Source: Mustelus asterias
Lineage: Eukaryota
DNA length: 64,000 nt
Direction: 5' to 3'
Assembly: GCF_964213995.1 (NCBI RefSeq)
Contig: NC_135813.1
Location: 60,264,001-60,328,000, forward strand
Below are positions 8,000 to 63,134 of this stretch, one piece after another. Each line of letters begins with the position of its first letter. Within the stretch, counting starts at the first letter, position 1. A program made the position numbers and the translations under genes. The notes beneath the pieces were generated by a model, which was given only the letters and a program-made list of their open reading frames with translations, made no database searches and was not told the origin of the DNA.

Positions 8000-8220
8000 T
8001 GTTTAATGTTCCCTCCACCCACATTGTCTGTACATTTAAGACCTGGCTGGCTGTAGGATTCGCATTCTAATCAGTATTCTGCAACTTGATTCTGTCTGTT
8101 TGCACTGTTTGAGAGCAGATTTCCACTCCATCTGACGAAGGAGCAGTGCTCCGAAAGCTTATGGTATTTGCTACCAAATAAACCTGTTGGACTTTAACCT
8201 GGTGTTGTGAGACTTCTTAC
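8000..8220 (+). mobile_element. Solo PLE pseudo-LTR with hammerhead motif
   Basis: Homologous to 62992-63190; TSD TGTTTA(C/T)CTTG at 7989-7999 and 8221-8231. Confidence 0.85.
8128..8164 (+). ncRNA. Minimal type-I hammerhead ribozyme-like motif
   Basis: CCAU-CUGACGA-A-GGAGC(AGU)GCUCC-GAAA-GCUU-AUGG: core, stem II and stem I are present, with a palindromic AGCU stem III. Confidence 0.75.
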
Positions 8221-8369
8221 TGTTTATCTTGCAAGTCAGAGTTGATCATGAAAAAATTTGAACAATGAATGATCCACCTCTCAGCTTCTAATGGAGCCAG
8301 GGGTCTGGAGGAGGGTCATAAAACTCTATTAGCAATATAATTTATTCATTTTACAGAATCAAAGAATTG

Positions 8370-9889
8370 TGCTGCAGGTATGATAATTAGTTTACATTTC
8401 TGTTGTCAGCATGTCACGTGATCATAGCTAGAGCAATTCAGGGTGGAGCCTCAGTCAGAAGGTTATTTTGTGTAATGTATCTGTGTGTGTTTGCCACAGG
8501 ATCAGGCAGTTCGGTTTGGATTTCATGAAGATTTGCTCTATCTTGCAGCTAATAGAGAAATTTTCATTGGTCCCCACAGGGCCTTGCAGCAAAGTTTACT
8601 TGGAAAGCTGTGGAAAGGCAGTCAAATATCTGCCAGCAAACCAAACCAGGAGCTGAGATCTGAGAAGGAAAAAAGTGGAGGGCCGCATAGCCAAGAGCTA
8701 TAGCCAACATGTAAAGAACCTCTACTCAGTCTTATCTAGAACCTTGAGGGAATTAAAGCAAATGCTCAAGGGTTGTGGCAAACCTTTGTGCGCGTCACTA
8801 AGAAGTAATGAACCTTCAAAATTGTTGTTATGGAATTATTTAAGAGGATTAAAAAGTAGAACAGAGTTCATAATGCAAATAAATAAAATCTGTTGTTGCA
8901 AATGTCCAGTTCATCATTCATATTAGTATTTTAGAGGTAATGTTTAGTTCTGGAAAGGTTACCGCAGTGAAGGCAAGATAAATAAAATGCGGGGCTTTAT
9001 TGATTGCCAGAACATCTAACAAAGACAGTTCAGAAGGTTACCCATGTTTGTTTAAGAGAGTCAGAATAGAAGACATAGAGCTATAAAACAGCAAGTGGGC
9101 TTACTTGTCTAGAGAAATCATAAAGGAGGGATAATTAGCTTAAAGGTTGACTGAGGATAGTCCTAATCAGGCTATGTGGTCAGTGAGATTGATGGAGCTT
9201 AGGAAGACTCTCTGGTTTCAGTTGATCCTGGCTGCTGGGTAAAGTTTTTAGTTGCAGTTTGGACCACGTGTGGTTTGCAACTCACATAGAAGTTAGCCAA
9301 GTTAAACAGCCCTGCACTGTAAGCAGCGTAAAACACTAATTTCATCATTGACCATGTTCCGAAGGCAGGTGAGGCTTATTTCAGTTTGAATCTTATGAGG
9401 AACTGAAGCTGGAAGACTGCCTCATTCGAATCTGTTAGGTAAGTCTACAGTAGGTCTCACACTGTCCTACTGCAAAAGAAAGTAACAGGCAGATTTGCGT
9501 GGAAATATTGGAGAAGTAAACAAATCAAGAGACTGAGCCCTTCAAAGTCAAAAGAGAATAAATTAATGTTTGAACTCTGAGGATAACTGAAGCTGAGGAA
9601 CATTCTCCAGAGACTGTGGCATACTTAGAGATGGTCTCTACAGTAGTAAATAACTTTAAGATTGATGTTTGTTGTGAGAATTTGTGGGAGAAGTAGGAAG
9701 TAAATCAGAGTGTGTCACATATATAGTTATAAACCATATTGTTAAGTTAATAGGCTTTGTTTTGTTTCAGTATTTTACATACAATAAAGTTTGTTTTTCA
9801 AAAAAGTGAAATCTTGTGCAGTTCTATTGGTTAAAACAAGGCATTGGATTTCTTTTTAAATGTTAAAGGTGCCTAACTGGACAGTAACA
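8370..9889 (+). mobile_element. Possible old solo LTR
   Basis: No ORF; AATAAA...GTGAAATCTTGT...GTAACA 3' layout shared with about 21385-21492; left boundary uncertain. Confidence 0.35.
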
Positions 9890-10164
9890 ATATAGTGTTA
9901 ACTCTGCTTACTTTGCTTCATTATTTTTTTGGTATACAATAACATTAATGAATGTGAAATTATTTGGTATGGCTGTGTTGGTTAATTGCTGGGTATTTAG
10001 ATTTATTCTTTGAACATTAACACAGGCCATGATAGGATTGTATACGACTCTTTCAGACAGAGCCATTCCAGATCAAAACTCACTGCGCAAGTAATGTGTT
10101 CTCTCATGTCAGCTCTTTCTTTTGCCAATTACTTTAATTCTGTATCCTCCAGTTACCTACCTTT

Positions 10165-11265
10165 CTGTGACTGGAAACATAAAGGTGACAAATGCACATG
10201 GGATACAGGGTAATTTGATGAGGTGGATTCAAAATTGGCTCACTTGTCGGGGACAAAGAGTGATGACAGAAGGTTACTTTAGTGACTGGAAGCCACTAAA
10301 TCATTCGTCATTTATATAAACAACATAGATGAGTATGTGGCGGGGTAGGATGAGTAAGTTTGCGGATGACACAAAGATTGGCCGGATGGTTAACAGTGAG
10401 GTTGAATGTCTCAGACTATAGGAAGATATAGACGGGATGGTCAAATGGGCAGATAAGTGGCAGATGGAATTTAACACTGGAAAGTGTGAGGTGCTACACT
10501 TCGGAAGGAATAATTTGATAAGGAAATATTCAATGAACACTATGTCACTCAAGAGATTCTGAGGAACAAAGGGACCTTGGCATGTTTGTCCATAGATCCG
10601 TGAAGGCAGAAGGGCATGTCAGTAGGTTGTTGAAAAAGGCACATGGGACACTTGCCTTTATCAATCGAGGCACAGGTTGCAAAAGCAAGAAGATCATGTT
10701 GGAGTAGTATAGAACTTTGGTGAGGCCACAGCTAGAGTATTGTGTGCAGTTCTGGTCGCCATATTATCGGAAGGATGTGATTGCACTGGACGGGGTGCAG
10801 AGGAGATTCACCAGGATGTTACCTGAGATGGAACATTTAATTTATGAAGAGAGGTTGGATAGACTTGGGTTGTTTCCATTGGAGCGGAGAAGACTGAGGG
10901 GCAATCTGATCGAGGTGTACAAGATTATGAGGGGCATGGACAGAGTGGATAAGGAGCAGGTGTTCCTCTTAGTTAAGGGTCAGTCACAAAGGGACACAAG
11001 TCCAAGGTGATAGGCAGAAGGTTTAGGAGGGATGTGAGGAAAAAGCTTTTTACCCAGAGGGTGGTGTCGGTCTGGAATGCGCTGCCTGGGAGGGTGATGG
11101 AAGCAGGTTGCATTACATCCTTTAAAAAGTATCTGGATGAGCACTGGGCCCATCATAACATTCAAGACTATGGGCCAAGTGCTGATAAATGGGATTAGGT
11201 AGGCAGGTTAGGTAGTTCTCACATGTTGGTGCAGGGCCTCTTTTGCACTGTATGAATCCGATTCT
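10165..11265 (+). mobile_element. CR1 LINE (HER1-like) 3' fragment
   Basis: KFADDTKIG and VRPQLEYCVQFWSPY...; 3' end resembles the V-SINE tail. Confidence 0.88.
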
Positions 11266-11269
11266 GAGT

Positions 11270-13200
11270 ATCCTTGTGGCAGATTTGTTCAACTGCACAG
11301 TTTGAGAGCGTGGGTGTGCATCCAGGGTACATGGAGCAGACTGGTCAAAATGTTACATGTCGTCTTTACGGAAGACCAAAGTAACGTCAAAGAATGTGAC
11401 AGTTCTACTTGCTTCAAGTTTGGTAATGATAACATGTTGAAATCACTACAAAGAATAGTAATTCTGTGTAAAATAGCAGGGATAAATCACTATCAGTGCT
11501 GATATGGTATCAAGTGAAATACTGTTAAGTAAGCCTTCAATGAAAATGGCACAAATAAAGTTGTGATGTGGAGATGCCAGCGTTGGACTGGGGTAAACAC
11601 AGTAAGAGTTTTAACAACACCAGGTTAAAGTCCAACAGGTTTATTTGGTAGCAAATAAAGTTGGACATGGAGCATAAGTGATTTGTTTTTGGTAAATATG
11701 TAGATTTGCAATTAACAGACTCGTGTCATTTCTTGTATACCTTTAAGACATACATCTCTCGACAGAATGTTATAGGAGCATTAATGACTGCTGGGGATAG
11801 GAATTTAAGAGGGGAACCAAATTATTACCAATCTACATTGACAATTTGCACATCCCTTTGGCTGTAGATTGAAGATTCTGTTAAAGGATGCAGAGGTACT
11901 GGATGAGGAATACACTTGTTGATACATTAGTGAAAAAAATGATATTTGGAATAAGTACAGGAGAATGTCATGCAACCAGTTGTAAGTCCTCCATTGGCAA
12001 GACTTCAATGAAACTGCAGCAGTGATGGACCTCAAAGTATGGGATAGGAAATAATATTTTTCCTCTACTGTAGACATAGTGGCTAGATTTATTCCATCAA
12101 TGGTAATTTTTAGTAAAGATAAAAAATTATCAAAATAATGGAAAGATGGATAAGAACTGGACTGAGAGCACCAGTCCATTTTTAAATGGATAGTGGGGAA
12201 GAATTTGTCAATGGTGAATTCAGGAGTATGGTGCAAAAATTTGAATATTGTAGCAATGCACACAGCAGCAGAAAGTCCTTTCAGCAACGGGATATGAGAG
12301 AAATCATGCCGTTAATGACACAATACTCAAGATTTTACAACTGAATTGTGAACTGACAATTGCTTTAGCGTGGGCATTACATATAAAAAAAAAGACGCTC
12401 CAGATGGCTGGGGGCTACAGCCTCATCACTTAGTTTATAACAGGGATCCGAAGTTGCCTTGAATGACATTGGACCATCCACTGGCTGTAGAGGGGACTAC
12501 CATTAGTTCAATTTTTGCAGAACATTCGAATGTCATGTAAGGAGGAAGGAGAGCATTTATGGAAGTGGACTTTTCAGGAGAAAAATCAGGAGTGCTTTGA
12601 GGTATCAAATCATGATGTCAGAAATGAAATTTAAGCCTGGGGACAGAGCATATTATAAAGGAGAGGCCCAGGAATAATCTTGCAACATGGGAACCAAGCT
12701 TTAGAGTACATTCCATATGCCTTACTGACACTGATTACCACATTGAAAGAACCTGAACAAAGGATGGAAACTGAAGATCTCATGAGTATAAATGGTCAGA
12801 AGGAGATTTCAAAAATAAATTAGGTTGACGGCAAGTCACCAGATGTCTAATTGTTTCAGCAAAAAAAAACTGCTTGTCCAAAGAAATTATTGAATATTCT
12901 TGAGGAGGGACGCTTTGCATTGGTAGTGGATTATGAGAACATGGAAATTTTCATTATTGTAATTTTTTTTTGTTTTCAAGATGGGCGAAGGGAATATGAA
13001 GTATGTTAAAGATCATATACATTATCTTATTACCATTTTGTACATTTCCTGATGAATAGTTTTTTGACTGCATATCAATTTAATTTAAAGAGGGGAATCT
13101 GTTGGTATCTAACAGGTTCAGTTGACGGGTATTTTTTGTATTATCATTGAAGAAATGAATGTTGTTAGCATACCTTCACACCCACACTCCCTTTTGGGGA
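11270..13200 (+). mobile_element. Ty1/Copia (GalEa-like) LTR retrotransposon relic with RT largely deleted
   Basis: Protease-like CFKFGNDNMLKS...LSKPSMKMAQIKLD; integrase MHTAAESPFSNGI (12256) and ALAWAL..., AVEGTTISSIFAEH; RNase H-like end at about 12825-12910; purine tract then TGTTGG at 13100; domain order PR-IN-RH. Confidence 0.7.
11564..11651 (-). mobile_element. 88-bp PLE 3'-tail retrocopy inserted in the Copia relic
   Basis: Matches the reverse complement of about 63140-63228; 12-bp TSD CAAATAAAGTTG at 11552-11563 and 11652-11663. Confidence 0.85.
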
Positions 13201-13891
13201 ATAGTGTGGGAAGGATTCCAGTACTGACTATTAGCCCGGTGAACCGCATTGAATTCTCCTTCCGTAGACAACAAGTCCTTCCGTTGGACTCGAACACGGA
13301 GCTTCTGGTCCAGCGGTAGGGACGCTACCACTGTGCCACAAATGTCTAATAGTTTACAGAAATATTCTGAACAGGAGTTGGGTATAGATTAGTTAATTAG
13401 CAGGTCTATATAAAGAGTCAGCCAACATTGAAGATGGGTGTTAGATCAGAAGTACTGTGGCTAGCAAAAACAATCTCCACCAAAGCATTCTCGTCTGTGT
13501 ATCTTCTTCACTACTAGACCTGGGAATTTCACTAATACACATTTACTATCCAAGCACAGGAACTTCACATCTTTCAATGCATTGTAATGGTGAATTAAAC
13601 GGCAAGATGCCAATGTCAGTAAGCAAACAGCAAAGCAATGCACATCATAAGTAAATTGTGGTTTTCGTTTAACCACTACTTTGCCCTTGCCTGAAGTTGC
13701 TGCGTAATTTGTGCAGAAACAACAGGATAACTGTCGCTAGCCTCTCCATAATTTTGACAGTAAATTCCGATCCAATATCCTTGTATTTCCAATTCTTTTC
13801 TCCTTCTACCCAAAGTACAATGCAAAACAAGCTTATAAATTACATTCTTCCAAATTATTTCCTGCAGGATTCAAAAGATCAGTACACTTAC

Positions 13892-14059
13892 CACTACAGT
13901 CACTGCCTTCCGGTGGCCGACAAAGTCCATGTTCGTTTTCCAGCCATCCCGCTCAATGATCTGTGCAGTGGGGCCTGAGTTGTTCATTGCATGAGCAGAT
14001 ACAAGGTAATGGCCATCCGGGGACCAGCTTAACCTCAGTACGTGCGTCGTGCCTGCACA
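13892..14059 (-). CDS. HIRA: HIRA coding exon 8 (CAGTTHVLRLSWSPDGHYLVSAHAMNNSGPTAQIIERDGWKTNMDFVGHRKAVTVV)
   Basis: 168 nt; tgcag/gtaagt ends; phase 0. Confidence 0.97.
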
Positions 14060-14180
14060 CTGCAGCAAAATGAAGCAATTATATGACCATAGCATTTTGT
14101 GGTTACACAAACCATGTCAATAAGATGTTTACAATTTGCATGGCAATAACTGAACAAACACAAATGTTGCTAACTCCACT

Positions 14181-14508
14181 GGGTGTCATGGTGGCACAGT
14201 ACTTAGCACTGCTGCCTCACAGCACCAGGGATCCAGGTTTAATTCCGGCCTTGTCTGTGTGGAGTTCGCACGTTCTCGCCGTGTCTGCGTTTCCTCCGGG
14301 TTCTCCGGTTTCCTCCCGCAGTCCAAAGATGTGCAGACTGGGTGGATTGGCCATGCTAAATTGCCCTTTAGTGTCCCATGATATATAGTTTAGGGGGATT
14401 AGCAGGGTAAATATGTGGTGTTATGTGGTAAGCCTGGACAAGTTTTGGTGCAGATTTGATGGGCAGAATGGCCTCCTTCTGCACTGTAAGGATTCTAATG
14501 ATTCTATG
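14181..14508 (+). mobile_element. V-SINE (HE1-type) with CR1-derived tail
   Basis: tRNA-like head with A/B boxes, V-domain GGTTTCCTCCC..AGTCCAAAGATGTGC, tail gcactgtaaggattct. Confidence 0.88.
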
Positions 14509-15287
14509 AATGACTTGCATACCAGATTATATTTCTGTAATGTTTTCAAGATGGCATCAATTGGTTTAACATTTGAGTAACATATTTCTAAAAATGAATT
14601 GACTGGGTGGGTAACCTCAGAGAAGTTTTTTCTCAGAATACATTCAAACGATTTCACCTGAAGAATGGGGGCAGTTTTCAGGTAGTCAATTCCACCAGGC
14701 TGTCTCAGCTCACCATCCACCCAATCCAAGGCACAAACAATGCCCATGGTTGGGTGTCAGTTCCAAACAACTGCACGCTTTTTGCATATTTTGAGCATCT
14801 CGCTGAACGGGGGTAGAATCTGGGAGTCAAGTATGCAGCAGAAGTTTGATTTGTGAGAGCCATCAGAAGAATTGATCCCTCCCTGACCCACAGGAATCAC
14901 TTTTAAAACCCAAAAACATATATATTAAGGACCACTGGTTCGACCACTCAATGCCGTGGAGAACCATAGACAGCAGGTTTTGGTGTAATACAGAAATAAG
15001 ATTTCAGCTGGGGGTACCGACCATTTATTTGTAAGGCCTAATCCAAATTAGACTTTCAGGACATTGATTTTTTAAAAAAAGAATGCATTCTTCAAATTGC
15101 CCCTACCTTCACCGTGAAGAAGACAGTCGACAAAAAAGGACAGAAGAGAAGCTGGCATTATGACTGCTGGAAGGCCTGCATTCTAGATTGCTACATGAGA
15201 AATCTTATGAACAGGCTTCCCACAAAGGGCAGCATGAAACTGCATCACCTCAGGGCAACAACTCAGACATTTACTGTAAACACATAC

Positions 15288-15448
15288 TTCGTCAAAAGGT
15301 TTAGTGATATTCGTCTCCAACTGCCAATCCATGGTCCTCCATACTTTTAAGCTCCGGTCGTCAGCTTGGGATGCAATGTACTTCCCAACAGGATCCCAGG
15401 TGAGGCCCTTCACCAGACCCGAGTGACCCCGTAATGTTGCAATGATCT
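15288..15448 (-). CDS. HIRA: HIRA coding exon 7 ([54 protein letters not shown])
   Basis: 161 nt; tgtag/gtatgt ends; GH...WR WD40 repeat. Confidence 0.97.
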
Positions 15449-15748
15449 CTACAAGGAAGAGAGTTGAAATGTATTCACGGTCTTTGAAGCTTACAACTTT
15501 TTCTAGTGAATGAGACCTTTTGTGACCAACAGCAAGTTATTTTTTACACAGCGTTCAAACCTTACGATTGCAATGGATTCAAAGGAAACAATTCCTGCAT
15601 GGGTTTGAGGCAGAGTATCTATGCTGAAGAATGTAAATGCTAAAATTTAACTTTCAACACTGATTCATGAGGAATTCCAATTCATACTGGATCCAGTCCT
15701 GTCCATATAGAACTTATTAATCAATTTAAAGCCAACTTCCAATCTCAC

Positions 15749-15844
15749 CTGGAAACTTCAGAGCATTCCAGATAACAACGGTGTTATCTATACTGCAGGA
15801 GGAGAGCCAAGCATCGTGGGGTGACCAGGCCAGGTCCATCACAT
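15749..15844 (-). CDS. HIRA: HIRA coding exon 6 (DVMDLAWSPHDAWLSSCSIDNTVVIWNALKFP)
   Basis: 96 nt; ttctag/gtgaga ends; translated by hand; WD40 repeat. Confidence 0.96.
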
Positions 15845-16074
15845 CTAGAACATAGACAAGAGTCCTCAGTAAGTGTACTGTAGTGCACTATACAATGTAA
15901 AGCCAAGAAAGGAAACCTCAGTGACACATGGGCCAGGCAATCACCATTTCCAAGGAAGAGTCTAACTATCTCCTCTTGACATTCAATGGCATTACCATCA
16001 CTGAATCCCCAACAATTAACATCCTGCGGTTACCATTGTCTAAAAACTTAACTAGACCAGCCAGTGGCTACAAA

Positions 16075-16490
16075 GAGGTTGTCTGATGGGGATAGGCTGA
16101 GCAGATTGGGGCTATATTAATTGGGAGGTGACCTTATTGAAATATTCGGATTCTGAGTGGACCTGACAATAGATACTGAGAAACTGCTTCCCTTTGTGGG
16201 GAAATCTAGAATAAGGGGGCACAGTGTCAAAATAAGGAGCCTTGTATTTAAGATTAGGAGGAGGAATTTCTTCTCTCAGCGGATTGTGCGTTTTGGAATT
16301 CTCTTCCCCAGAGCAATGGAGGCTGGACCATTGAATATATTCAATTTTTGACTTTCGAGCTACATGGGAGCTAATGGCTATGGAGCATTGGCAGGAAAGT
16401 GCAGTTAAGCACACAATCATGATCTAACTGAATGGCAGAGCAGGCTTGGTGAGCTGAATGGCCTATTCCTGCTCCTATTTCTTATGATCT
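16075..16490 (+). mobile_element. CR1 3' fragment inserted in an older LINE (15870-17020)
   Basis: FPFVGKSRIRGHS...RNFFSQR; tail cctatttcttatgatctt. Confidence 0.8.
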
Positions 16491-17116: not shown

Positions 17117-17243
17117 GGGCTGAATTTTCCAGTCCCGCCCGCCACGGGAATTGTAACTGGCAGGGGGTGGACCATGCAAAGGTCCGTTAACCTCAGGCAG
17201 GATTTTCTGGTTTCCGGGCACGCGCGGCAAGAAAATTCCACCC
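17117..17243. mobile_element. 127-bp GC-rich MITE (Harbinger-like)
   Basis: Imperfect TIRs GGGCTGAATTTTC / GAAAATTCCACCC; 3-bp TSD AAA; paralogue at 25176-25301. Confidence 0.72.
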
Positions 17244-21492: not shown

Positions 21493-21824
21493 ATGTGCTG
21501 CAGATTAACAGCTGCCCAGTATGTCCCACTATACTTAGCAACTTTGAACAGTTTACATGTTGCCAATATTCATTCAGAAAGTGGCTGTCGACAACCAACC
21601 AATGGGGATGCACCGGGTACACCCATTTATAATGTATTAAATCACAATGCAAATCCACTAGATCTCCCTCTACATACAGCATTAGAATGTAACATTGATC
21701 TATTGGTTACCTGTGTGGTTGTCTTTGCATCATTCCTGGATATAATTATATGTTTTAAACTCAACCAAGTAAATCAGTGACTGAGTACATAGGCTTGTGA
21801 AGCTTGCAGTCTTCAGATACTTAC

Positions 21825-21915
21825 GCAGCTCTCTTCCACAACATGATCAACTTGTCATCTCCACCTGATGCTAGGTATAATCCATTATTAGACCAGCGCA
21901 CGCAATTTACACAGG
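21825..21915 (-). CDS. HIRA: HIRA coding exon 4 (CVNCVRWSNNGLYLASGGDDKLIMLWKRA)
   Basis: 91 nt; tgcag/gtaagt ends; WD40 repeat. Confidence 0.97.
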
Positions 21916-22799
21916 CTGCAAGGAAACAGAGGCAAACATTAGCAATGTCACATTTATCTGCAAGAATGCAGAAGCAGCAAAATAGACTTTGAATTAAATA
22001 AAAAAACCAGGAGAGCTCAGCGGGTTTACCCAGCAAGTGGCTCAGCCAAGTAGACCAAGAGCTCCAAAGTTCAATTGCAAGTCTGTACTGAATTATATGT
22101 GGTAGAAGTTGAGCCTCTGCACACAAATTAGAAAAAGAGAATCGGACCAGGTCATTCATTTCCAATTGCTATATAGGGACATCAGCTGGAAGTGTGCTGT
22201 TGTAAGCAACATGTGAGAACAGAAGGCGTGGTTGGGGCTGCCTTCCTAGCAGTCAAATAGGTTTCAATGGCCGCATAAATAATGGTGAACGAGCAAAGTA
22301 TCAGAGGCTGGTCAGCACTCAAGAGGACTATACTCCAACACTGACTCAATTTTCTCAACAGAAAGTGATAGAAACGTGGTGCAGAAATTAGAATGTGAAA
22401 TAAAATCAAAATAAACCTTTCGTCTTAGTTCATCGGAATTAATTGATAAACCAGATATCACAAACAGGAGATAACGTAGCCTCCGTTTCTCCCAGTGGTT
22501 TTGGTAGATGAAAATAACTGGTTGTGGAAAAGAGCAGTCTGGGAGATAAGCCAGTTCAACATTTATTTTAAGGAGTGGAATTTCTAATACCGTTGCAGTG
22601 TGAAAAAGACACCAACTCTTAAAGAAGAAAAATGAAAATATAGACACAGAAAATGGGAGCAGGAGAAACTTCACTTATGAGGATAGATTGGAGAAGTTGG
22701 AACCGTTCCCCTTGAAAAGAAGGCAGCCAATAGGTGTTGATAGAGGTGTTCAAAATCATGTGGGCTGGACAAAGTAGGTAAGGAAAACAATTCCCACTC

Positions 22800-38118: not shown

Positions 38119-38251
38119 TAGATAAGGGCAAATTACTGCAAATGCTGGAATCTGAAAAAAAATAAAAGAACATGCTGGAAAATCTCAGCAGGTCTGACAG
38201 CATCTGTGAGAGAGAATAGAGCCAATGTTTCGAGTCTGGATGACCCTTCGC
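38119..38251 (-). mobile_element. Second-family PLE-type short element ending in a degenerate hammerhead
   Basis: Minus strand reads CUGGCGA-A-GGGUC(AUCCA)GACUC-GAAA-CAUU; TSD CAGATTCAAT(T/C)ATA at 38105-38118 and 38252-38265; inserted in a CR1 relic. Confidence 0.7.
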
Positions 38252-38534
38252 CAGATTCAATCATAGCTTATAAAAAGGATATTGTAGAAACACATTAAGA
38301 GAAAATATTGCAGGCAAAGTGCTGGGGTGTGAGACTAGCTAAATTGCTCTTGGACCATTGGACTTGACAGGTTGAATTGCATTCTTCTTCTTGTAACCAT
38401 TCAATGATTTTGTGATTCATAACCTCAGGGCATTTACAGCCAAATAATTGATTTTGGAAAGTTGTAATTGGTACAATATAGAAGACAAACCAATTTGTGT
38501 GCAGTAAGATCCCTCAAACAGCAATCAACAGATA

Positions 38535-38685
38535 ATGTTGGAAAATCGCAGCAGGTCTGGTAGCATCTGTAAGGAGGGAAAATAATTGACGTTTCAAGTC
38601 CAGATGACAAGGGTCATCTCTTTCCTCTCCTTACAGATGCTACCAGACCTGCTGAGATTTTCCAGCATTTTCTCTTTTGGTTCTG
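38535..38685. mobile_element. Fold-back (palindromic) short element of the same second family
   Basis: About 47-bp near-perfect inverted arms 38535-38581 and 38621-38668; the spacer holds hammerhead stem-II remnants in both orientations. Confidence 0.75.
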
Positions 38686-45895: not shown

Positions 45896-47312
45896 ATTTC
45901 GAAAAATAGGAATTCTCTCTGGTGCCCCGGTCAATATTTATAACTCAATCTTTTAATTAGCTGAAAATGTAGTGACTCTTGTAACCAAACACAATGACCA
46001 TTTTGTACACAGCATGATTCCACAAGCAATAAATTAGATGAATGGCTTGCCAATTTATTCTTTGTTATATTTTTAAGGGAAGGCACAAGAACTTGCTGCT
46101 GTTCTCTATCTAATACAAATGGGATTCTTACTGCTGCCCTGACCAATTAATATCATTAATCTTCAATTAATTTCACAAACAGATTCCCATTATTGTCATG
46201 TTCCTGTTTGTGGAAGCTTGCTGTGCACAAATTGGCTGCTGCATTTCCTACATTGGAATAGTGACTACACTTCAAGTACTTAATTGGCTGTAAAATGCTT
46301 AGGGATGCCTGGGATCATGGAATTATGTAAATGTAAGGCTTTATTTATTTCCTGAGTTAAGACATTGAACTGAGACTATCTGTCCAAAACAGTCTCCAAA
46401 TCCCATTTTCTATTAGTTGAAGAAGAACGGTGAGTTTTGCTGACCTCTCTTAATCAACATTACCAATGACAGATTGGCAGGTCATTCATCTCATTATTGT
46501 TCATGGAATCTTGTACACAAAATGTTTGCTGTTTTTGGTTGCAGTCTTTCAAGTAATTAAATGTATGCAGCGCTGTGGAAGATTTGGGCCAATATTTCTC
46601 AGAAATATCTCCGTGTCCAGATGATCAGAGATTGGATCTAAGTTGGAAAGTTCATGTCAGGATCCTGAGGAAGTCCCAACATGCAGACATGCGCTGAAAC
46701 TGACCTGGAAGTGTAAACTTTCAATGGGCTGATTTGTGCTGCCCTCAACCCTCTGTGAAAGTCTCTGATACTGAGCTCAGTGCCAGATGAGTGAAACTTA
46801 GCTGCATACTTGCCCTGAAAATGTTACACTGGTTAATGCCAGGTCTGACTCCATTATTGGCCAGCTGAGCACCGTAACTGACCCTACCCCATCCAACCCC
46901 AAAACCACCCACACCAAATCACCTCCCCAATCCTACCACCCAGTCCTCGACTCTACTACCCTCACCCACTCACTAACCCACTCACCTACTGAAAGACTTG
47001 AGATTTAAAAAAATTTAACGTGAATATGGTAGCTACTGTTGTAAACAGGGGCAGGTGCTGGCTTTGTCCGTCATTTCTCGTATTTGGATGTCTGCGCTGA
47101 CCCATTGATGCTTTAGCTGGGATCAGGAAAAATGCAAAAAGGTCAGTTTTCAGGAATTCTCAGGCATGGACACTGACTGGAAGATCTGGATCAGTATTTA
47201 TAAATGTAGATGTTAACAGATTGTATTGGTCCAGGTCAGACTGCAACATGAACAACATGTTAAATAACGAAGCGCACAGCCTGCAGTAAAGTTTTGTACG
47301 TTTTGCCTACAG

Positions 47313-47622
47313 AGTCAGAGATCCTCCGAAGCTGCCAGTGGAAGAGAGCGAGAGGCGAGCACTTCTGATGAAGGAATGGTCACGTTACAAGCAAAAAGAA
47401 CATGAAAAGGAAGCTGAAATGATCCAGTCCGTGATTGAGGCACAGCAACAGGCCCTTCAGGAACTGCGACTGGAATCGGAAGAGTTGTACCAGGCTGCCA
47501 TTAAACGGGACCAAGAACTGTTTCCATTAGAGTTACAGGGATGTAGTTTTACTCCTCCCATAGTTAACTATGAAGCACCTGATGGGAAATACAGAGATAT
47601 CACAAAAGTGTATACACAGTGA
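47313..47622 (+). CDS. MRPL40: MRPL40 last exon (VRDPPKLPVEESERRALLMKEWSRYK...YEAPDGKYRDITKVYTQ*)
   Basis: ctacag acceptor; 310 nt to TGA; mL40 C-terminal motifs ERRALLxKxWS and PxGxYxDITKVYTQ. Confidence 0.97.
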
Positions 47623-53690: not shown

Positions 53691-53691
53691 G

Positions 53692-54000: not shown

Positions 54001-54016
54001 TGAAGGACATATATTC

Positions 54017-55491
54017 CTAGTCATGTTTAATGTGGCCAGAAGTCACCATAATGAAGTCAACTTCATCAGAAAAGGTGATCAAGAGGTTAAGAGAAATCTT
54101 TAGTAGATTTGGATTTCCTGAGCAATTAGTGAGTGATAATAGACAAACTATTATTTGAACTAAAAATTTGAAAGTTTCTTGAAAGAGAATGGTACACAAA
54201 ATATTAAATGTGCACTGTACCATCCTGCTACAAATGGACTAGCAGAAAGTTTTGTGCAAACAATGAAGCATAAAGTCAGACGTTGACCAAATGTCTAAAT
54301 CAATTTCTACTCATATAAAGGAATACTGCTCATTCAGTGACAAAACTTTCTCCAGCATTACTGATGATGAACTGACAATCACATTCGGCATTCAACTAAT
54401 TGAAACCTCCAAAGATAAAATAAATGGTCCAAAAGAAACAAGGTCAGATTGAACGATGGGAAATAAAGCTATACATGCGTTTTCCACTAAGGACAAGAAG
54501 TTCTGGCTAGGAACTACTCTACAGGAGAGAAATGAGTTCCTGCCACGATCATTATACGTACTGGACCTGTCTGATATGCCGTCCAGACCCGGGATGACGT
54601 CATCTGGAAGAGACATGTGGACCAGATGTTGGTGGGGAGAATCGATTCATCAGAGATAGAACCTGCAAGGTTCTGAACTCAATCTTCCTGAAACCCTGAC
54701 ACCAACAGAACTGTTTGAGAAAAACAACACCTCAATTTCAGACCAAGCACAAAGTCAACCTCTAAGTACAACATCGACACCAGTCAAAATAACCACTGAC
54801 AATGTTCATACAAAGTCGGAAATACCAGAGGTTACAACTAGTGCCAAGAAGCAGATGCCTGAGGTTCGCTGGCAACCATTCAGAGAATGACAACCTCCAA
54901 ACCATCTGACTTAGTGATTATTATTGTTCACGTTACACTTGTTTAAATTTGCTGGGGATGTTCAATTTAAAAAGAAGGTGGAAATGTTATGTATTTATAT
55001 GGGGCGGCACGGTGACAGTGGTTAGCACTGCTGCCTCACAGCGCCAGGGACCGGGTTCAATTCCTGGCTTGGGTCACTGCCTGTGTGGAGTCTGCACATT
55101 CTCCCCGTGTCTGCGTGGGTTTCCTCTGGGTGCTCCAGTTTCCTCCCACATTCGAAAGATGTGAAGGTTAGGTTGATTGGCCATGCTAAATTGCCCTTAG
55201 TGTCAGGGAGATTCGGAGGGTAAATATATGGGGTTGTGGGGATAGGGCCTGGGTGGGATTGTTGTCAGTGCAGGTTTGATGGACCATATGGCCTCCTTCT
55301 GCACTGTAGATTCCAAATCGATTTTGGAGAAGCAACGCAGCATAATAAGATATGCAGGATGTCACCGATCACTAGCGTGGGTCAGAGTACAGAGTAAAGA
55401 AGCAACCTGTGTTGAACACACCTCATTAATAAAGCTCCTTTTAGTTTGTTCAGCCTCCATGCTTCCTAGCATCAATCCAGCGAACATAACA
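54017..55491 (+). mobile_element. Ty3/Gypsy relic: integrase, PPT and 3' LTR (54985-55491, split by a V-SINE)
   Basis: WPEVTIMKSTSSEKVIKRLREIFSRFGFPEQLVSDN and YHPATNGLAESFVQTMK; purine tract before TGTTATGT; LTR ends ACATAACA (inverted termini); AATAAA inside the LTR. Confidence 0.85.
55001..55320 (+). mobile_element. V-SINE (HE1-type) inserted in the Gypsy LTR
   Basis: Begins 16 nt inside the LTR. Confidence 0.88.
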
Positions 55492-56027
55492 GCTTGGTTT
55501 GGTGAATATTAACTCTTCAAACAGAATCTGGGTTTTAAAAAATTCATTCATGGGTTGTGGGCGTGAATAGGTGGGCCAGCATTGTTGTCCATCCCTAGAA
55601 CCGAGTGGATTGCTAGGCCATTTCAAGAGTCACATGTAAGATTTCCATCCCTAAAAGACATTATCAGTGAACCAGATGGGTTTTACAACAATGGTTTCAT
55701 GGTCATTCCAGATTCCAAAGTTCACCGACTGCCTTAGTGGGATTCGAACCCAGGCCCTCAGAGCATTACCCCGTGTCTCTGGATTATTAGTCCAGTGACA
55801 ACATCACTACACCAACACCTTCCAGGTGTGATTGCTGTGTGCAAATTAGCTGCCATGTTTCCTATATTACAACAGCGAGCAAACTCCAAAAGCATTTTGT
55901 AAGGCACTTTGGGATATCCTGAAAGATGCCAAATAAATGCAAGGTTCTTTTAACGTTATTTCTGTTCCTCTATATTAAATCAAATAATTCTTCGACAACA
56001 GCTTCCTTTGAGTAGCTGGGACTACAT

Positions 56028-57124
56028 GGATTGACGATTGGCTGACAGACAGAAGGCAGAGAGTTGGGATAAAAGGTTCTTTCTCAGAATGGCAACCGGT
56101 GACAAGTGATGTCCCGCAGGGTTCAGTGCTGGGGCCACAGCTGTTCTCTTTATATATTAACGATCTAGATGACGGGACTGGGAGCATTCTGGCCAAGTTT
56201 GCCGATGATACAAAGATAGGTGGAGGGGCAGGTAGTATTGAGGAGGTGGGGAGGCTGCAGAAAGATTTAGACAGTTTAGGAGAGTGGTCCAAGAAGTGGC
56301 TGATGAAATTCAACGTGGGCAAGTGCGAGGTCGTACACTTTGGAAAAAAGAATAGAGGCATGGACTATTTTCTAAACGGTGACAAAATTCATAATGCTAA
56401 AGTGCAAAGGGACTTGGGAGTCCTAGTCCAGGATTCTCTAAAGGTAAACTTGCAGGTTGAGTCCGTAATTAAGAAAGCAAATGTAATGTTGTCATTTATC
56501 TCAAGAGGCTTGGAATACAAAAGCAGGGATGTACTTCTGAGGCTTTATAAAGCACTGGTTAGGCCCCATTTGGAGTACTGTGAGCAATTTTGGGCCCCAC
56601 ACCTCAGGAAGGACATACTGGCACTGGAGCGGGTCCAGCGGAGATTCACACGGATGATCCCAGGAATGGTAGGCCTGACATACGATGAACGTCTGAGGAT
56701 CGTGGGATTATATTCATTGGAGTTTAGGAGGTTGAGGGGAGATCTGATAGAAACTTACAAGATAATGAACGGCTTAGATAGGATGGACGTAGGGAAGTTG
56801 TTTCCATTAACAGGGGAGACTAGGACGCGGGGGCACAGCCTTAGAATAAAAGGGAGTCACTTTAGAACAGAGATGAGGAGAAATTTCTTCAGCCAGAGAG
56901 TGGTGGGTCTGTGGAATTCATTGCCACAGAGGGCTGTGGAGGCCGAGACGTTGAGCGTCTTCAAGACAGAAATTGATAAATTCTTGATTTCTCGAGGAAT
57001 TAAGGGCTATGGGGAGAGAGCGGGTAAATGGAGTTGAAATCAACCATGATTGAATGGTGGAGTGGACTCAATGGGCCGAATGGCCTTACTTCCGCTCCTA
57101 TGTCTTATGGTCTTATGGTCTTAT
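56028..57124 (+). mobile_element. Young CR1 LINE, 5'-truncated, in C22orf39 intron 2
   Basis: 312-aa open RT C-terminus (PQGSVLGP, FADDTK); (GGTCTTAT)n tail; apparent TSD GGACTA(C/T)AT at 56019-56027 and 57125-57133. Confidence 0.95.
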
Positions 57125-57314
57125 GGACTATATTTTAGTAGCAAGTACAAGGAGAAGTTTCCGGTCCCAATAGTCCCAAGCACAGTCCCATTCCCACTTC
57201 TTAAAGAGCATTCAGTGCCCCCCCTACTGACATGTACATTTAAACATCGGGAGATACAGAATGTAGTGTGAGCTAACTGGCCTCCAATAAAAAAATCCTT
57301 TGTTCAAGTTTAAG

Positions 57315-57660
57315 CCCAGCCTATCACGCAAACCAGCCTCCCGTCGATTGGCCTTGCAAAAGCAACCGACATAATCAAGGACCTCATGCACCCTGGACAT
57401 ACTCTCTTCCATTGGGAAAAAAATACAGAAGTCTGAGGTCACATACCAACCAACTCAAGAACAGCTTCTTCCCTGCTCCAACAGACTTTTGAATGGACCT
57501 AAAATTGATCTTTCTCTACACCGTACCTATGACTGTAACACTACATTCTGCACCCTCTCCTTTCCTTCTCTATGTACGGTATGCTTTGTCTGTATAGTGC
57601 ACAAGAAACAATATTTTTCACTGTAGAATACATGTGACAATAATAAATCAAATCAAAATA
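57315..57660 (+). mobile_element. Rex1-like LINE 3' end
   Basis: Same 3' UTR and tail as the other Rex1-like copies. Confidence 0.8.
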
Positions 57661-57855
57661 AAAATGGTTATTTCAACTAGACTGCTGCAACTGCTTGTAC
57701 ACATTTATCGATCATAAGTCACTGCCTTCAGAAGGGGAAAACAATGTCAGAGAATAACTTCAAAACAAAATGCTTCCGGCAGTTATCAGGGTGATATTTG
57801 GCTAAATCCAGATGCATTTAATACTTAATAAGGCAGCTTGTTTCATTAATCCCAC

Positions 57856-58023
57856 CTTAGCCTCGTCAAACTTAAGTTTTTCCCATTCCATGCAATTGTG
57901 GTAATCTTTCTTCCACTGTTGACAGGAGGGCAACTCTCCATATGTGTAGTAGTGATGAAAGAGATTCCCCAAACTTCGGCAGTGCTTCCACTCACTGCGG
58001 TAATCATCGCATACCCGAGGAGG
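57856..58023 (-). CDS. C22orf39: C22orf39 exon 2 (PPRVCDDYRSEWKHCRSLGNLFHHYYTYGELPSCQQWKKDYHNCMEWEKLKFDEAK)
   Basis: 168 nt; tacag/gtggga ends; twin CX9C-like cysteines and the HHYYxxGE motif. Confidence 0.95.
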
Positions 58024-58603
58024 CTGTAATGACAAGACAGACAGTTGCCAGGTCAGAAACATCTTGACAGAACACAAAACTTGTAAAACACCCCATGTCG
58101 TGAGCCAAGAATGCTACCCCCAGGAGTAAACCACTATTTAAAAGGTGACTGGCCAAGAATTTAAACGGTACGAATGCACAGCTGAGCTGCAGTGTGCAAA
58201 TACTGTCTGAGTTCAGTCCTGTCTTCAGAACAGCCGAACTTCTGCAAATAACATCAGATATTTATTCCAACCGATCTTTGCAAGAATATTAGAAGTGGCT
58301 TCCCAATCACGCCGTCCTAACACAGGGAACATTTCATCAGAGCTAATAATTATTTAGTTCATCTGATTCTCGATTTTCGTCCTGTCCAGTTTCAGTAGTG
58401 GGCTAATAATTTCCTAAAATCTAAAGCAGGTCGATTTTCGATCACATCTTGCATTTGTCCCAGTAACTTGTCCTATGGGGTTCATTTGATCTATGCACAC
58501 TGAATGTTCACCAGTAAAACAAATACCAGAGCTCTACCCACTTCCCACGGTCTCTCCTGCTACCCAGTGCATTATCCTAGCCACAGAGCAGGCCCTCACT
58601 CAC

Positions 58604-58627
58604 CCTCCATATCTCCCCGTCCGCCAT
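58604..58627 (-). CDS. C22orf39: C22orf39 (UPF0545) coding exon 1 (MADGEIWR)
   Basis: aggATGG Kozak context; 24 nt then gtgagt donor; resembles the human MADGSGWQ start. Confidence 0.92.
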
Positions 58628-58669
58628 CCTTTCACCTTTCCGCAGTTTGATCACCGTCTTGTGAATGAC

Positions 58670-58890
58670 ATGGCTGCAGCCAATCACTGCGGAGCTTCTG
58701 TCACTTTTCCGCGCCCTCTTCTCCTCATTGATAATAAATTAGCCAATCAACGTTCAATGTTTATGAGTGACACGCCCTCCGAATGAAAATCTGACCAATC
58801 AGCGTTAAATACATTGTCACAATTTATTCTCAAGACGAAACAACCAATTAGCGCAAAGATGGGGCTTCTCCCATTGTGACGTCACTGCAT
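58670..58890 (-). promoter_or_regulatory. C22orf39 promoter with four CCAAT boxes and a palindromic CRE
   Basis: CCAAT at 58680, 58743, 58795 and 58844 (NF-Y-like R-CCAAT-C/T-A contexts); GTGACGTCAC at 58876-58885; CpG-rich and directly upstream of the ATG. Confidence 0.75.
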
Positions 58891-58930
58891 TCATTCAATA
58901 CAGTTGTTGAATGTATGTGTTTACTGAACT

Positions 58931-59060
58931 ACTATAGCTTTACTATAGACTGTTGTTGTGGTAGCTTTACTATAGACTGTTGTTGTGTAAGCTTTACTAT
59001 AGACTTGTTGTGGTAGCTTTACTTAGGACTGTTGTTGTGATATCTTTACCATAGTCTATT
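58931..59060. repeat. 27-bp minisatellite (TAGCTTTACTATAGACTGTTGTTGTGG), about 4.5 copies
   Basis: Unit visible directly; period 58935 to 58962. Confidence 0.9.
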
Positions 59061-59145
59061 GATGTGGAGATGCCAGCATTGAACTGGCGTGGGCAGAGTA
59101 AGAAGTCTCACAATACCAGGTTAAGTCCAACAGGTTTATTTGGAA

Positions 59146-59182
59146 TCACAAGCTTTCGGAGCGCTGCTCCTTCATCAGGTGA
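59146..59182 (-). ncRNA. Minimal hammerhead ribozyme-like motif
   Basis: UCAC-CUGAUGA-A-GGAGC(AGC)GCUCC-GAAA-GCUU-GUGA on the minus strand. Confidence 0.75.
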
Positions 59183-59283
59183 GTGGAGGTTAATTCACAA
59201 ACATGGCATATATAGGCAAAGACACAATTGCAAGATTGGAATGTGAAGAATGGTTGGAATGCGAATCTTTCACTCTTTTTTTT

Positions 59284-59617
59284 ATAGAAACCCTACAGTG
59301 CAGAAGGAGGCCATTCGGCCCATCGAGTCTGCACCGACCACAATCCCACCCAGGCCCTACCCCCACATATTTACCCGCTAATCCCTCTAACCTACGCATC
59401 CCAGGACTCTAAGGGGCAATTTTTTTTTAACCTGGCCAATCAACCTAACCCGCACATCTTTGGACTGTGGGAGGAAACCGGAGCACCCGGAGGAAACCCA
59501 CGCAGACACGAGGAGAATGTGCAAACTCCACACAGACAGTGACCCGAGCCGAGAATCGAACCCGGGACCCTGGAGCTGTGAAGCAGCAGTGCTAACCACT
59601 GTGCTACCGTGCCGCCC
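59284..59617 (-). mobile_element. Young V-SINE (HE1-type) at the centre of the PLE fold-back
   Basis: Full length with CpGs retained. Confidence 0.92.
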
Positions 59618-59695
59618 TCTTCATATTCTAATCTGTAATTGTCTTGCAATTGTATCTTTGCCGATATATGCCATGTTTGTGAACTAACCTCCAGT

Positions 59696-59731
59696 CACCT
59701 GATGAAGGAGCAGTGCTCTGAAAGCTCGTGA
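59696..59731 (+). ncRNA. Minimal hammerhead ribozyme-like motif
   Basis: UCAC/CUGAUGA-A-GGAGC(AGU)GCUCU-GAAA-GCUC-GUGA; stem II is closed by G-U. Confidence 0.65.
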
Positions 59732-61548
59732 TTCCAAATAAACCTGTTGGACTTTAACCTATGATTTGATTTGTTTTACTTTTGTCACATGTATTAGCAT
59801 ACAGTGAAAAGTATTGTTTCTTGCGTGCTATACAGACAAAGCATACTGTTCATAGAGAAAGAAACGAGAGAGTGCAGAATGTAGTGTTACAGTCATAGCT
59901 AGGGTAGAGAAAGATCAACTTAATGCAAGGTAGGTCCATTCAAAAGTCTGATGGCAGCAGGGAAGAAGCTGTTCTTGAGTGGGTTGGTATGTGACCTCAG
60001 ATTTTTGTATCTTTTTCCCGACAGAAGGGGGAAGAGAGAACGTCCAGGCTGCATGGGGTCCTTAATTATGCTGGCTACTTTGCCGAGGCAGCAGGAAGTG
60101 TAGACAGTGTCAATGGATGGGAGGTTGGTTTATGTGATGGATTGGGCCACATTCACGACCTTTTGTAGTTCCTTGCAGTCTTGGGCAGAGCAGGAACCAT
60201 ACCAAGCTGTGATACAACCAGAAATAATGCTTTCCATGGTGCATCTGTAAAAGTTGGTGAGAGTCATAGCTGACATGCCAAATTTCCTTAGTCTTCTGAG
60301 AAAGTTGAGGTGTTGGTGGGCTTTCTTAACTATAGTGTCGGCATGGGTGGGACCAGGACAGGTTGTTGGTAATCTGGACACCTAAAAACATGAAGCTCTC
60401 AACTCTTTTTACTTCTTCCCCATTGATGTAGACAGGGGCATGTTCTCCTCTGTGCTTCCTGAAGTCGATGACAATCTCCTTCATTTTGTTGACATTGAGG
60501 GAGAGATTATTTTCGCCATACCAGTTCACTAGATTCTCTATCTCATTCCTGTACTCTGTCCCGTCATTGTTTGAGATCTATCCCACTACGTCAGCAAACA
60601 TCAAAAGCTAACTGGAGGGGAATTTGACCACACAGTCATAGATATATAAGGAGTATAGTAGGGGGCTGAGAACACAGCCTTGTGGAGCACCGGTTATGAG
60701 GATGATTGTGGAGGAGGTGTTGTTGCCTATCCTTACTGATTGTGGTCTGTGAGATCAGTTTTGTGTGAATCATGGAGTTGAAGGCTGAGCTGTAGTCAGT
60801 AAATAGGAATCTGACATAGATGTCTTTGGTATCTAAGTGTTCCAGGGTTGAGTGCAGGGCCAGGGAGATGGATCTGCTGTAGACGATAGGCAAATTGTAG
60901 AGGATCCAGGTAGTCCGGGAGTCTGGAATTGATTTGTGCCATGACTAGCCTTTCGAAGCACTTTATAGTGATGGATGTTAGAGCCATCGGATGATAGTCA
61001 TTGAGTTACGCTGCTTTGTTTTTCTTAGGTGCCGGGATGATGGTCTTCTTAAAGCAGAGAGGGACCTCAGATTGTTGTAAAGAGAGGTTGAAGATGTCTG
61101 CGAATACCCTTGCCGGCTGATCTGCTCAAGATCTGAGTGCTCGTCTGGGTACCCTATCTGGGCCAGTCACTTTCCATGGGTTGACCTTCGAGAAAGCTGC
61201 TCTGACATCTGCAATGGTGACCCAGATACAAGTTCATCCAGGGCGGAGGGCATGCTCTCGCTGACCTCTTGCCCAAAAGGGGCATAGAATGCATAGAGCT
61301 CCTCAGGGAGGGGTGCGTTGGAGCTGATGATTTTACATGCCTTCATCTTGTAGCCTGTTATGTCTTGCAGACTTTGCCATAGTCAGCGGGGGTCTGTGTG
61401 ACTAGCCTGAGACTCCAGCTTGGTCCGGTACTGTCTTTTGGTATCCTTGATGGATCCCCTTAGATCGTATCTGGCTTTCTTGTATGGACACAGTAAGAAG
61501 TCTCACAACACCAGGTTAAAGTCCAACAGGTTTATTTGGTAGCAAAAG

Positions 61549-61585
61549 CCACTAACTTTCGGAGCGCTGCCCCTTCGTCAGGTAA
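61549..61585 (-). ncRNA. Minimal hammerhead ribozyme-like motif (pLTR of the Neptune element)
   Basis: UUAC-CUGACGA-A-GGGGC(AGC)GCUCC-GAAA-GUUA-GUGG on the minus strand. Confidence 0.7.
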
Positions 61586-63097
61586 GTGGGACATCTGTTC
61601 ACAAACAGGGCATATAAAGACACAAACTGAATTTACAAAATAATTGTTGGAATGCGAGTCTTTACAGGTAATCAAGTCTTAAAGGTACAGACAATGTGAG
61701 TGGAGAGAGCGTTAAGCACAGGTTAAAGAGATGTGTATTGTCTCCAGACGGGACAGTTAGTGAGATTTTGCAAGCTCAGGCAAGTCGTGGGGGTTACAGA
61801 TAGTGTGACATGAACCCAAGATCCCGGTTGAGGCCGCCCTCATGTGTGCGGAACTTGGCTATCAGTCTCTGCTGAGCAACTTTGCATTGTCGTGTGTCGT
61901 GAAGGCCGCCTTGGAGAATGCTTACCCGAAGATCAGAGGCCGAATGCTCGTGACCGCTGAAGTGTTCCCCAACAGGAAGAGAACACTCTTGCCTGGTGAT
62001 TGTCGTGCGGTGTTCATTCATCCGTTGTTGTAGCGTCTGCATGGTCTCCCCAATGTACCATGCTTCGGGACATCCTTTCCTGCAGCGTATCAGGTAGACA
62101 ACGTTGGCCGAGTTGCAAGAGTATGTACCTGGTGGATGGTGTTCTCACGTGAGATGATGGAATCTGTGTCGATGATCCGGCACGTCTTGCAGAGGTTGCT
62201 GTGGCAGGGTTGTGTGGTGTCGTGGTCACTGTTCTCCTGAAGGCTGGGTAGTTTGCTACGGACAATGGTCTGTTTGAGTTTGTGCGATTGCTTGAAGGCA
62301 AGAAGTGGGGGTGTGTGGATGGCTTTGGCGAGATGTTCGTCTTCATCAATGACATGTTGAAGGCTCCAGAGAAGATGCCGTAGCTTCTCTGCCCCGGGGA
62401 AGTTCTGGACGACGAAGGATATCCTGTCCACTATGTCCCGTGTTTGTCTTCTAAGGAGGTCGGTGCGGTTTTTTGCTCTGGCGCGTTGGAACTGTCGATC
62501 GATGAGTCGAGTGTCATATCCTGTTCTTATGAGGACATCTTTCAGCATCTGGAGGTGTCTGTTGCGATCCTCCTCATCTGAACAGATCCTGTGTATACGG
62601 AGGGCTTGTCCGTAGGGGATGGCTTCTTTAACGTGTTTAGGATGGAAGCTGGAGAAGTGGAGCATCGTGAGGTTATCCGTGGGCTTGCGCTACAGTGAAG
62701 TGCTGAGGTGACCATCCTTGATGGAGATGAGTGTGTCCAAGGATGCAACCGATTCCGGAAAGTAGTCCATGGTGAGTCTGATGGTGGGATGGAACTTGTT
62801 GATGTCATCATATAGTTGTTTCAGTGATTGTTCACCATGAGTCCAAAGGAAGAAAATGTCATCGATGTATCTAGTGTATAGCATCGGTTGAAGGTCCTGT
62901 GCGGTGAAGAGGTCTTGATCGAACCTGTGCATGAAGATGTTGGCATATTGAGGTGCGAATTTGGTCCCCATGGCTGTTCTGTGTGTCTGGATGTACCTTT
63001 AAGACTTGATTACCTGTAAAGACTCGCATTCCAACCATTATTTTGTAAATTCAGTTTGTGTCTTTATATACCCTGTTTGTGAACAGGAATCCCACTT

Positions 63098-63134
63098 TTA
63101 CCTGACGAAGGGGCAGCGCTCCGAAAGCTAGTGG
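63098..63134 (+). ncRNA. Minimal hammerhead ribozyme-like motif (inverted pLTR)
   Basis: UUAC-CUGACGA-A-GGGGC(AGC)GCUCC-GAAA-GCUA-GUGG. Confidence 0.72.

Follow-up and report, generated by a model that had tools for sequence, protein, structure and literature searches.

We analysed a 64,000-nucleotide stretch of the genome of the shark Mustelus asterias (contig NC_135813.1, positions 60,264,001 to 60,328,000, referred to here as the window), and found that five hammerhead motifs within it are almost certainly minimal type I hammerheads in the pseudo-long terminal repeats (pseudo-LTRs) of a very abundant Penelope-like retrotransposon (PLE). As a whole, the evidence gives good support to a reading in which this hammerhead is predicted to cleave, as a dimer, the RNA of the element that carries it, and in which its dispersed copies are likely dead relics. 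The motif and its extra A are already known, and the present data contribute a further host lineage and a very high copy number rather than a new ribozyme. The question at stake is whether PLE hammerheads cut in vivo, and why. Low activity in vitro, dependence on protein and a lack of RNA ends at the site have been reported (PMC4209133, PMC11167929). The present family, with its seven dated subfamilies and over 100,000 copies, allows in vivo cutting to be addressed by counting copy ends, and a pile-up of copy starts at the cut site is the one result of wider interest. If it is true, the starts of genomic copies would be in vivo evidence of cleavage by a PLE minimal hammerhead, and would provide a countable ratio of cut to uncut template per subfamily through time.

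Hammerhead motifs in the window and in the genome

All five motifs were found where the initial annotation had placed them, except that stem I of the copy given at 59696 begins at 59695. In each, CUGANGA is followed by a single extra A, stem II has 5 bp and a loop of 3 nt, GAAA and G(C/U)U precede the cleavage base H, and stem I has 4-5 bp. The copy at 8128-8164 (plus strand, stem I CCAU/AUGG) is of a U17 subfamily and has its predicted cut between 8160 and 8161. An old C17 subfamily with stem I UCAC/GUGA is represented at 59146-59182 (minus strand, predicted cut 59150/59149) and at 59695-59731 (plus strand, predicted cut 59727/59728), the latter likely being the inverted arm of the 59146 insertion. 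Finally, an A17 subfamily (stem I UUAC/GUGG) is present in a 3′ pseudo-LTR at 61549-61585 (minus strand) and in an inverted pseudo-LTR at 63098-63134 (plus strand, predicted cut 63130/63131). The earlier proposal of at least three subfamilies agrees with the three that occur in the window. The five motifs had been counted as five copies, but they are not independent and represent only three insertions, the 61549 and 63098 motifs being paired arms and the 59146 and 59696 motifs likely so; the AGCU palindrome ascribed to all of them is present in four, and the 61549 copy has AGUU. Several variants that had been taken as design, namely the loop AGU, GCUCU and the U at the cleavage base of the 59146 copy, are instead accounted for by CpG decay, CpG positions being changed at 5-26% in the older subfamilies. 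The 59146 subfamily has C at the cleavage base in 15 of 19 copies, and U17 in the 59146 copy itself is likely such a decayed site.

An Rfam scan of the window returned eight matches at E values up to 5, with no hammerhead model among them. A general minimal-hammerhead descriptor was run on 1.04 Mb of unique fetched DNA enriched for the family, and gave 195 matches compared to 0 after block-shuffling. Across the 3.68-Gb genome searched, the motif pattern had 58,907 exact matches and a reversed-pattern control had 0. Compared with their zero controls, these counts indicated that the motifs are beyond chance. The tail common to all copies had 176,370 exact matches genome-wide.

The carrier is an endonuclease-bearing Penelope-like element

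The 3′ part of the PLE open reading frame (ORF), comprising a Cys linker and the GIY-YIG endonuclease (EN) region, lies on the minus strand at 61794-62689 in two frames (62090-62689 and 61794-62144), and matched Pfam GIY-YIG at 21.4 bits, just below the cut-off of 22.6. When the genome was searched with this fragment, the best 150 of 42,897 candidates were scored; relatives among the matches listed were 88-93% identical, and several carried open frames of 912-913 codons. At 5 of 18 loci fetched for long frames, the frame was flanked by two same-strand repeats 3.0-3.1 kb apart. Full-length units were found to contain an 893-aa reverse transcriptase (RT)/GIY-YIG frame between two hammerheads ~3 kb apart on one strand, one hammerhead being ~100 nt upstream of the ORF start and the second after the ORF. 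The frame matched RVT_1 above the cut-off (E 5e-10), a GIY-YIG motif was visible in its sequence, and a CX4CX2C linker was located between RT and EN (C754-C762); a PDB search for relatives of the protein gave no match. The core match and this RT/GIY-YIG context bear out the initial proposal of minimal type I hammerheads in Penelope pseudo-LTRs.

The direct pseudo-LTRs, the inverted 5′-truncated copy and the one-sided tail of 30-40 bp are features of EN-bearing (EN+) Penelope elements. Judged from its sequence by the features in PMC8557442, the element is an EN+ PLE of the Neptune or Nematis type. It likely belongs to the Neptune clade, because vertebrate PLEs are placed in Neptune or Poseidon in a 2026 preprint (bioRxiv 10.64898/2026.07.22.740005). 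Speaking against this choice, the assignment rests on a motif and not on a tree, and the CX2-5CxxC linker between RT and EN is common to Neptune and Nematis (PMC8557442). Neptune-clade EN+ PLEs (Craig et al. 2021, PMC8557442) have the same single ORF with RT followed by a C-terminal GIY-YIG, the same linker, and the same partial tandems, inverted 5′-truncated copy and one-sided 30-40 bp tail. The Poseidon-clade element PAc of Anolis (Frangieh et al. 2024, PMC11167929) likewise has a hammerhead near the ORF start; its ORF starts inside the hammerhead, whereas the start codon here is ~100 nt downstream of the cut.

Contigs of four other organisms were found to carry the same repeat, with variation at N7 and H17 among other sites. 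The PLE family looks recently active: the youngest subfamily shows 0.4% divergence, many identical copies and open 893-aa frames. In its hammerhead, stem II has 6 bp and includes a shifted G-U pair, and stem I has only three contiguous pairs but may continue beyond a 2-nt bulge.

The hammerhead fold is conserved among source subfamilies

Of 289 tail-anchored copies in which conservation was examined, 232 could be assigned to seven subfamilies whose mean divergence ranges from 0.4% to 6.8%, 50 were too short or too changed, and 7 were unclassified. The core, the extra A and AGCU were identical in all seven subfamily majority sequences. These sequences differed at N7 (C, U or A), at H17 (A, U or C), in loop 2 and in the flanks; the youngest subfamilies, absent from the window, have A at N7 and a 6-bp stem II. 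Among 14 recurrent haplotypes, 94.4% of the cells were paired, compared with 25-53% in slid controls, and stem II was fully paired. Two-sided changes were seen in three of nine pairs, namely, in stem I, the pair adjacent to the cut (C-G, U-A) and the fourth pair (C-G, U-G, U-A), and, in stem II, pair 3 (A-U, G-U, G-C). Covariation in stem I, put forward from the window alone, was thus confirmed by the compensatory C-G versus U-A change next to the cut, and the fold is conserved across subfamilies.

These data make it very probable that the hammerhead fold has been selected in the source elements. Some observations temper this: about three independent two-sided changes underlie the covariation, 7 of the 14 haplotypes lack pairing at the fourth position of stem I, and the measure of two-sided change was reached in 22 of 500 shuffles, a count that is not a probability since the sequences are related. 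The initial annotation had further stated that the cleavage base is never G. Drawn from five copies in only three insertions, this was weak; it held for the seven subfamilies, all with A, U or C, and failed for the copies of one subfamily counted genome-wide, where G17 was not depleted (82 copies versus 53 at a matched tail site, both counts including some copies on unplaced contigs that are possibly duplicates).

A fraction of insertions begin at the predicted cut site

To find where copies begin and end, we used 197 copies chosen regardless of the hammerhead (100 exact matches to the tail on the plus strand, and 97 copies from an untargeted 0.8-Mb block), representing 168 insertions. Of the 168, 11 had their 5′-most start no more than 1 nt from the scissile bond, compared to 20 over 27 upstream positions, a background of 2.2 per 3 nt (binomial p 1.3e-4). 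The spacer between cut and tail is 6, 13 or 15 nt here, and when only subfamilies with a spacer of 13 nt or more were kept, 9 of 126 insertions started at the cut site (p 4.6e-4). The longer arm of inverted pairs had its start at the cut in 8 cases and upstream in 6. Furthermore, in all six pairs with a cut-site start in the shorter arm, the other arm began there as well, compared with 1 of 22 pairs with other starts (Fisher p 2e-5), as expected if the template ends at that base. Most copies extend past the cut site. A second group of starts, 14 of the 168 insertions, was found 35-37 nt upstream of the cut; in some subfamilies this is ~30 nt downstream of a TATA-like stretch, which was noticed post hoc. 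A cap-templated G gained no support at this upstream group (three of six copies starting exactly at A, p 0.32).

At the opposite end, none of 72 hammerhead 5′ parts in the untargeted block ended at the cut site, and the four copies without a clean tail all ran past it. The 3′ ends lay 20-27 nt past the tail anchor in 76 of 197 copies and 56-63 nt past it in 66, giving two sites ~36 nt apart, and these groups match the Anolis element, in which RT starts internally at two sites, one on either side of the tail (PMC11167929). From these genomic ends we lean slightly towards the view that about one in 20 insertions was copied from RNA already cut by its own hammerhead, with both arms beginning at the scissile bond, and that another set would begin ~35 nt upstream. 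A targeted literature search, mostly without subscription journals, found no report of a genomic pile-up of copy 5′ ends at a PLE hammerhead cut.

Predicted cleavage and its possible role

The observed anatomy of the element, its conservation, its decay and the positions of its copy ends can be brought together in the following mechanism. Transcription would start in the upstream pseudo-LTR just before stem I, probably ~35 nt upstream of the cut. Two hammerheads, from the two ends of one unit or from two RNAs, would then pair through AGCU to build stem III, and cutting would occur after H17, probably aided by the protein of the element as shown for Anolis. Reverse transcription would start internally, downstream of the hammerhead and mostly on uncut RNA, and the minority of insertions (~5%) derived from cut RNA would begin at the cut site. 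Dimer or protein-assisted cleavage has been described for related motifs (PMC4209133, PMC11167929). We consider hammerhead cleavage in vivo a rather likely prediction, and the dimer geometry a slightly less firm one.

Several findings weigh against this mechanism. In nearest-neighbour calculations with isolated 46-mers of the 8128 copy, the double hammerhead (-19.5 kcal/mol) was not favoured over two monomers (-22.8) or a stem-II-swapped duplex (-34.4), the energy model omitting core contacts; folding energies did not separate dimer from monomer. Inverted arms are the commonest arrangement, and in them dimer pairing within one transcript is impossible. The count of cut-site starts is small and comes from one 3.8-Mb region at one chromosome end, and the peak is not perfectly sharp, 7 of 126 insertions starting 2-7 nt downstream of the cut. 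In Anolis, cleavage was dispensable for PLE insertion in vitro, and PMC11167929 reports no RNA-seq reads for PAc starting or terminating at the cut.

The strongest alternative is that the fold is conserved and may cut, but that cutting plays no part in transposition. The hammerhead would then be a protein-binding or promoter-proximal structure or a passenger, and the pile-up of 5′ ends would come from stalling of RT at the three-way junction or from resolution of the insertion junction. The unchanged insertion of the Anolis PLE with catalytic mutants (PMC11167929) is in line with this, as is the success of Naiad PLEs without canonical hammerheads, some PLE clades having no hammerheads at all; that hammerheads are possibly parasites of PLEs was raised by the authors of that work (PMC8557442). 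The starts at the foot of stem I, 2-7 nt downstream of the cut, would also fit, as would the extension of most copies past the cut site. However, the catalytic residues and the exclusion of G from position 17 are kept in all seven subfamilies, both arms stop at the same base in six of six pairs, and the more stable stem II shows no comparable pile-up (two longer-arm starts and one solo start at positions 8-14). We therefore regard a fold without a role for cutting as possible but doubtful, and prefer cleavage of a minority of templates by the hammerhead.

Dispersed copies decay as probable relics

Decay of the dispersed copies was counted genome-wide in one subfamily with 8,189 exact 35-mer matches. 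Any change at four core sites was found in 481 cases, compared to 252 at four tail sites; U16.1G made up 182 of the 481, and without it the core had 299 changes versus 252. In the untargeted block, the core was broken in 13 of 54 long-enough copies. The earlier claim of a ribozyme under selection thus stands for the source elements, with their invariant core in seven of seven subfamilies and covarying stems, and is not supported for the dispersed copies, whose core changed more than their tail (481 versus 252). The dispersed copies seen here are likely dead relics, and selection acted on the source elements.

If host selection had instead kept the dispersed copies as functional ribozymes, intact cores (41 of the 54) would be explained, but these are expected anyway at 0.4-7% divergence. 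Non-CpG changes were rarer in the core (2.1%) than in the flanks (3.6-4.0%), in a local sample that is biased because it was partly chosen by the intact-core pattern. A14G was also rarer than at its control site (8 versus 33), a misfit with purely neutral decay unless sequence context explains it. Against selection by the host stand the excess of core over tail changes, the undepleted G17 and the 182 copies with U16.1G. In addition, close neighbours are mostly inverted (29 divergent versus 8 same-strand among 97 copies), so that dimerisation within one transcript is impossible for them. For the bulk of the copies this explanation is largely refuted, and we consider it very improbable.

We also considered whether U16.1G marks a sub-lineage that spread with a dead core. 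This was rejected, as the change occurs on several backgrounds, 14 of 17 inverted pairs show U in the opposite arm, and outside the core the identical change in GC[T]A context was found 105 times, pointing to a mutation hotspot. The same control ruled out an RNA-ligation scar at the cut site. T-to-G in GC[T]A context is unusually common in the repeat, with 182 changes at one site and 105 at another among 8,189 matches, exceeding A-to-G transitions at TAA or AAA (53 and 33), and non-T letters at the GC[T]A site also occur in independent contig sets. The excess may reflect a context-dependent hotspot or an assembly bias.

The extra A and related hammerhead systems

An extra A was present in 230 of 232 classified copies and in 192 of the 195 descriptor matches. 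The initial annotation had called it non-canonical, and the consensus CUGANGAH ... GAAAN-palindrome-NUH for metazoan PLE hammerheads (PMC4209133) contradicts this, listing the base between positions 9 and 10.1 as conserved and showing A as the most common extra base among its examples. Although the constancy of the A and the failure of Rfam hammerhead models to detect the motif could suggest a new variant, this is excluded for practical purposes by that consensus, by a painted-turtle example in its supplement with the AGCU palindrome followed by CCAAAUAAA as in the present copies, and by the known extra A10 of a viroid hammerhead, whose rate it reduces only moderately (PMC3705267). In metazoan PLE minimal hammerheads, an extra A is thus the norm.

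The present copies have the features of that class. The core CUGANGA ... GAAA ... NUH occurs in type I topology, the G10.1-C11.1 closing pair is found in 14 of 14 haplotypes, there is a palindromic 15.2/16.2 with little or no stem III (AGCU in seven of seven subfamily majorities), and the motifs are sited in the pseudo-LTRs of an RT/GIY-YIG element. The metazoan PLE minimal hammerheads of Cervera and De la Pena (2014, PMC4209133) have the same CUGANGA with one extra base, G-C closing pair of stem II and GAAA, the same palindromic 15.1-16.1 stretch without loop 3, NUH and short stem I, and the same placement in both pseudo-LTRs ~3 kb apart, with copies mostly solitary or inverted across the genome. 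The copy number here is far higher, with 58,907 exact matches to one pattern compared to ~4,000-9,000 reported for coelacanth and Xenopus (PMC4209133), and stem II has 5-6 bp compared to 7-8 in Schistosoma. A shark entry was not found in the searchable part of the supplement of PMC4209133. The plus-strand hammerhead of CChMVd (De la Pena and Flores 2001, via PMC3705267) has the same A between A9 and G10.1, which is compatible with cleavage, but it belongs to a viroid, an unrelated element, and has a full stem III and loop-loop contacts.

Animal non-LTR retrozymes also carry type I hammerheads related to those of PLE pseudo-LTRs and have been reported in the one chondrichthyan genome sampled (PMC7229834; bioRxiv 10.64898/2026.07.22.740005). 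Retrozymes are short head-to-tail tandem arrays in which every unit has a hammerhead and an ORF is lacking, whereas the copies in the window derive from an autonomous element, of which they are truncated or inverted ends: a tandem-repeat check of the window found no head-to-tail array over the hammerhead copies, and an ORF fragment is attached. Elsewhere, at C1:15480213-15480563, three same-strand matches 158 bp apart form a short head-to-tail pseudo-LTR array, which could be a retrozyme-like unit able to dimerise.

Insertions and other features of the window

The 8128 hammerhead lies in a solo 5′-truncated PLE end, a pseudo-LTR fragment at 7991-8223 on the plus strand that is 96% identical to other copies over its length. 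The region 59060-59760 is likely a single inverted PLE insertion with a minus-strand, long-tailed arm at ~59060-59270 and a plus-strand arm at ~59636-59760, and the 59695 plus arm is 93% identical to the arm at 59118-59235. A target duplication was looked for at this insertion and none was found, and its reading as one insertion is inferred. It is split by an unrelated ~335-bp repeat at 59284-59619, which, lying between the two arms, is likely younger than the PLE insertion. This repeat belongs to an abundant short interspersed element (SINE)-like family of ~330 bp, up to 98% identical to copies elsewhere, with further copies in the window at 14180, 29133, 32611, 40440, 43296, 52519, 53690 and 55000. 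A 27-bp tandem repeat of five copies (58935-59067) directly adjoins the tail of the 59060 arm.

One 5′-truncated PLE insertion with a 10-bp target duplication at its flanks occupies 61489-63229 and is 91% identical to the full-length unit. It consists of a 1.5-kb 3′ end of the element on the minus strand (61489-62993) and an inverted pseudo-LTR with tail (62997-63229), and its 63098 arm is 94.6% identical to the 61489-61689 arm. A sixth family copy, a tail-only stub without hammerhead, was found at 11564-11656 on the minus strand, starting ~4 nt downstream of the cut site.

We also found a second, older hammerhead-bearing repeat family with an ACGU palindrome (17 fuzzy copies in about 1 Mb). 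In 7 of the 17 the core is UUGACAA, the U3-A8 covariation reported for Schistosoma PLEs, and the different palindrome is consistent with selection on palindromic character rather than on one particular sequence. Its representative in the window is a decayed hammerhead-like motif at 38220-38254 (minus strand) with A6 and the palindrome mutated; intact copies have the extra A and ACGU. At 38527-38676, two inverted pieces of this family form a hairpin, and sub-threshold Rfam microRNA matches there are likely spurious.

Host exons were detected at 15183-15536 and 21821-22168 on the minus strand and at 47290-47622 on the plus strand, comprising WD40 pieces that weakly matched the CAF1B/HIR1 propeller and a strong PF09812 match; we take these to be HIRA and MRPL40, neighbours in other vertebrates. 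The 8128 hammerhead copy lies on the opposite strand to the WD40 gene.

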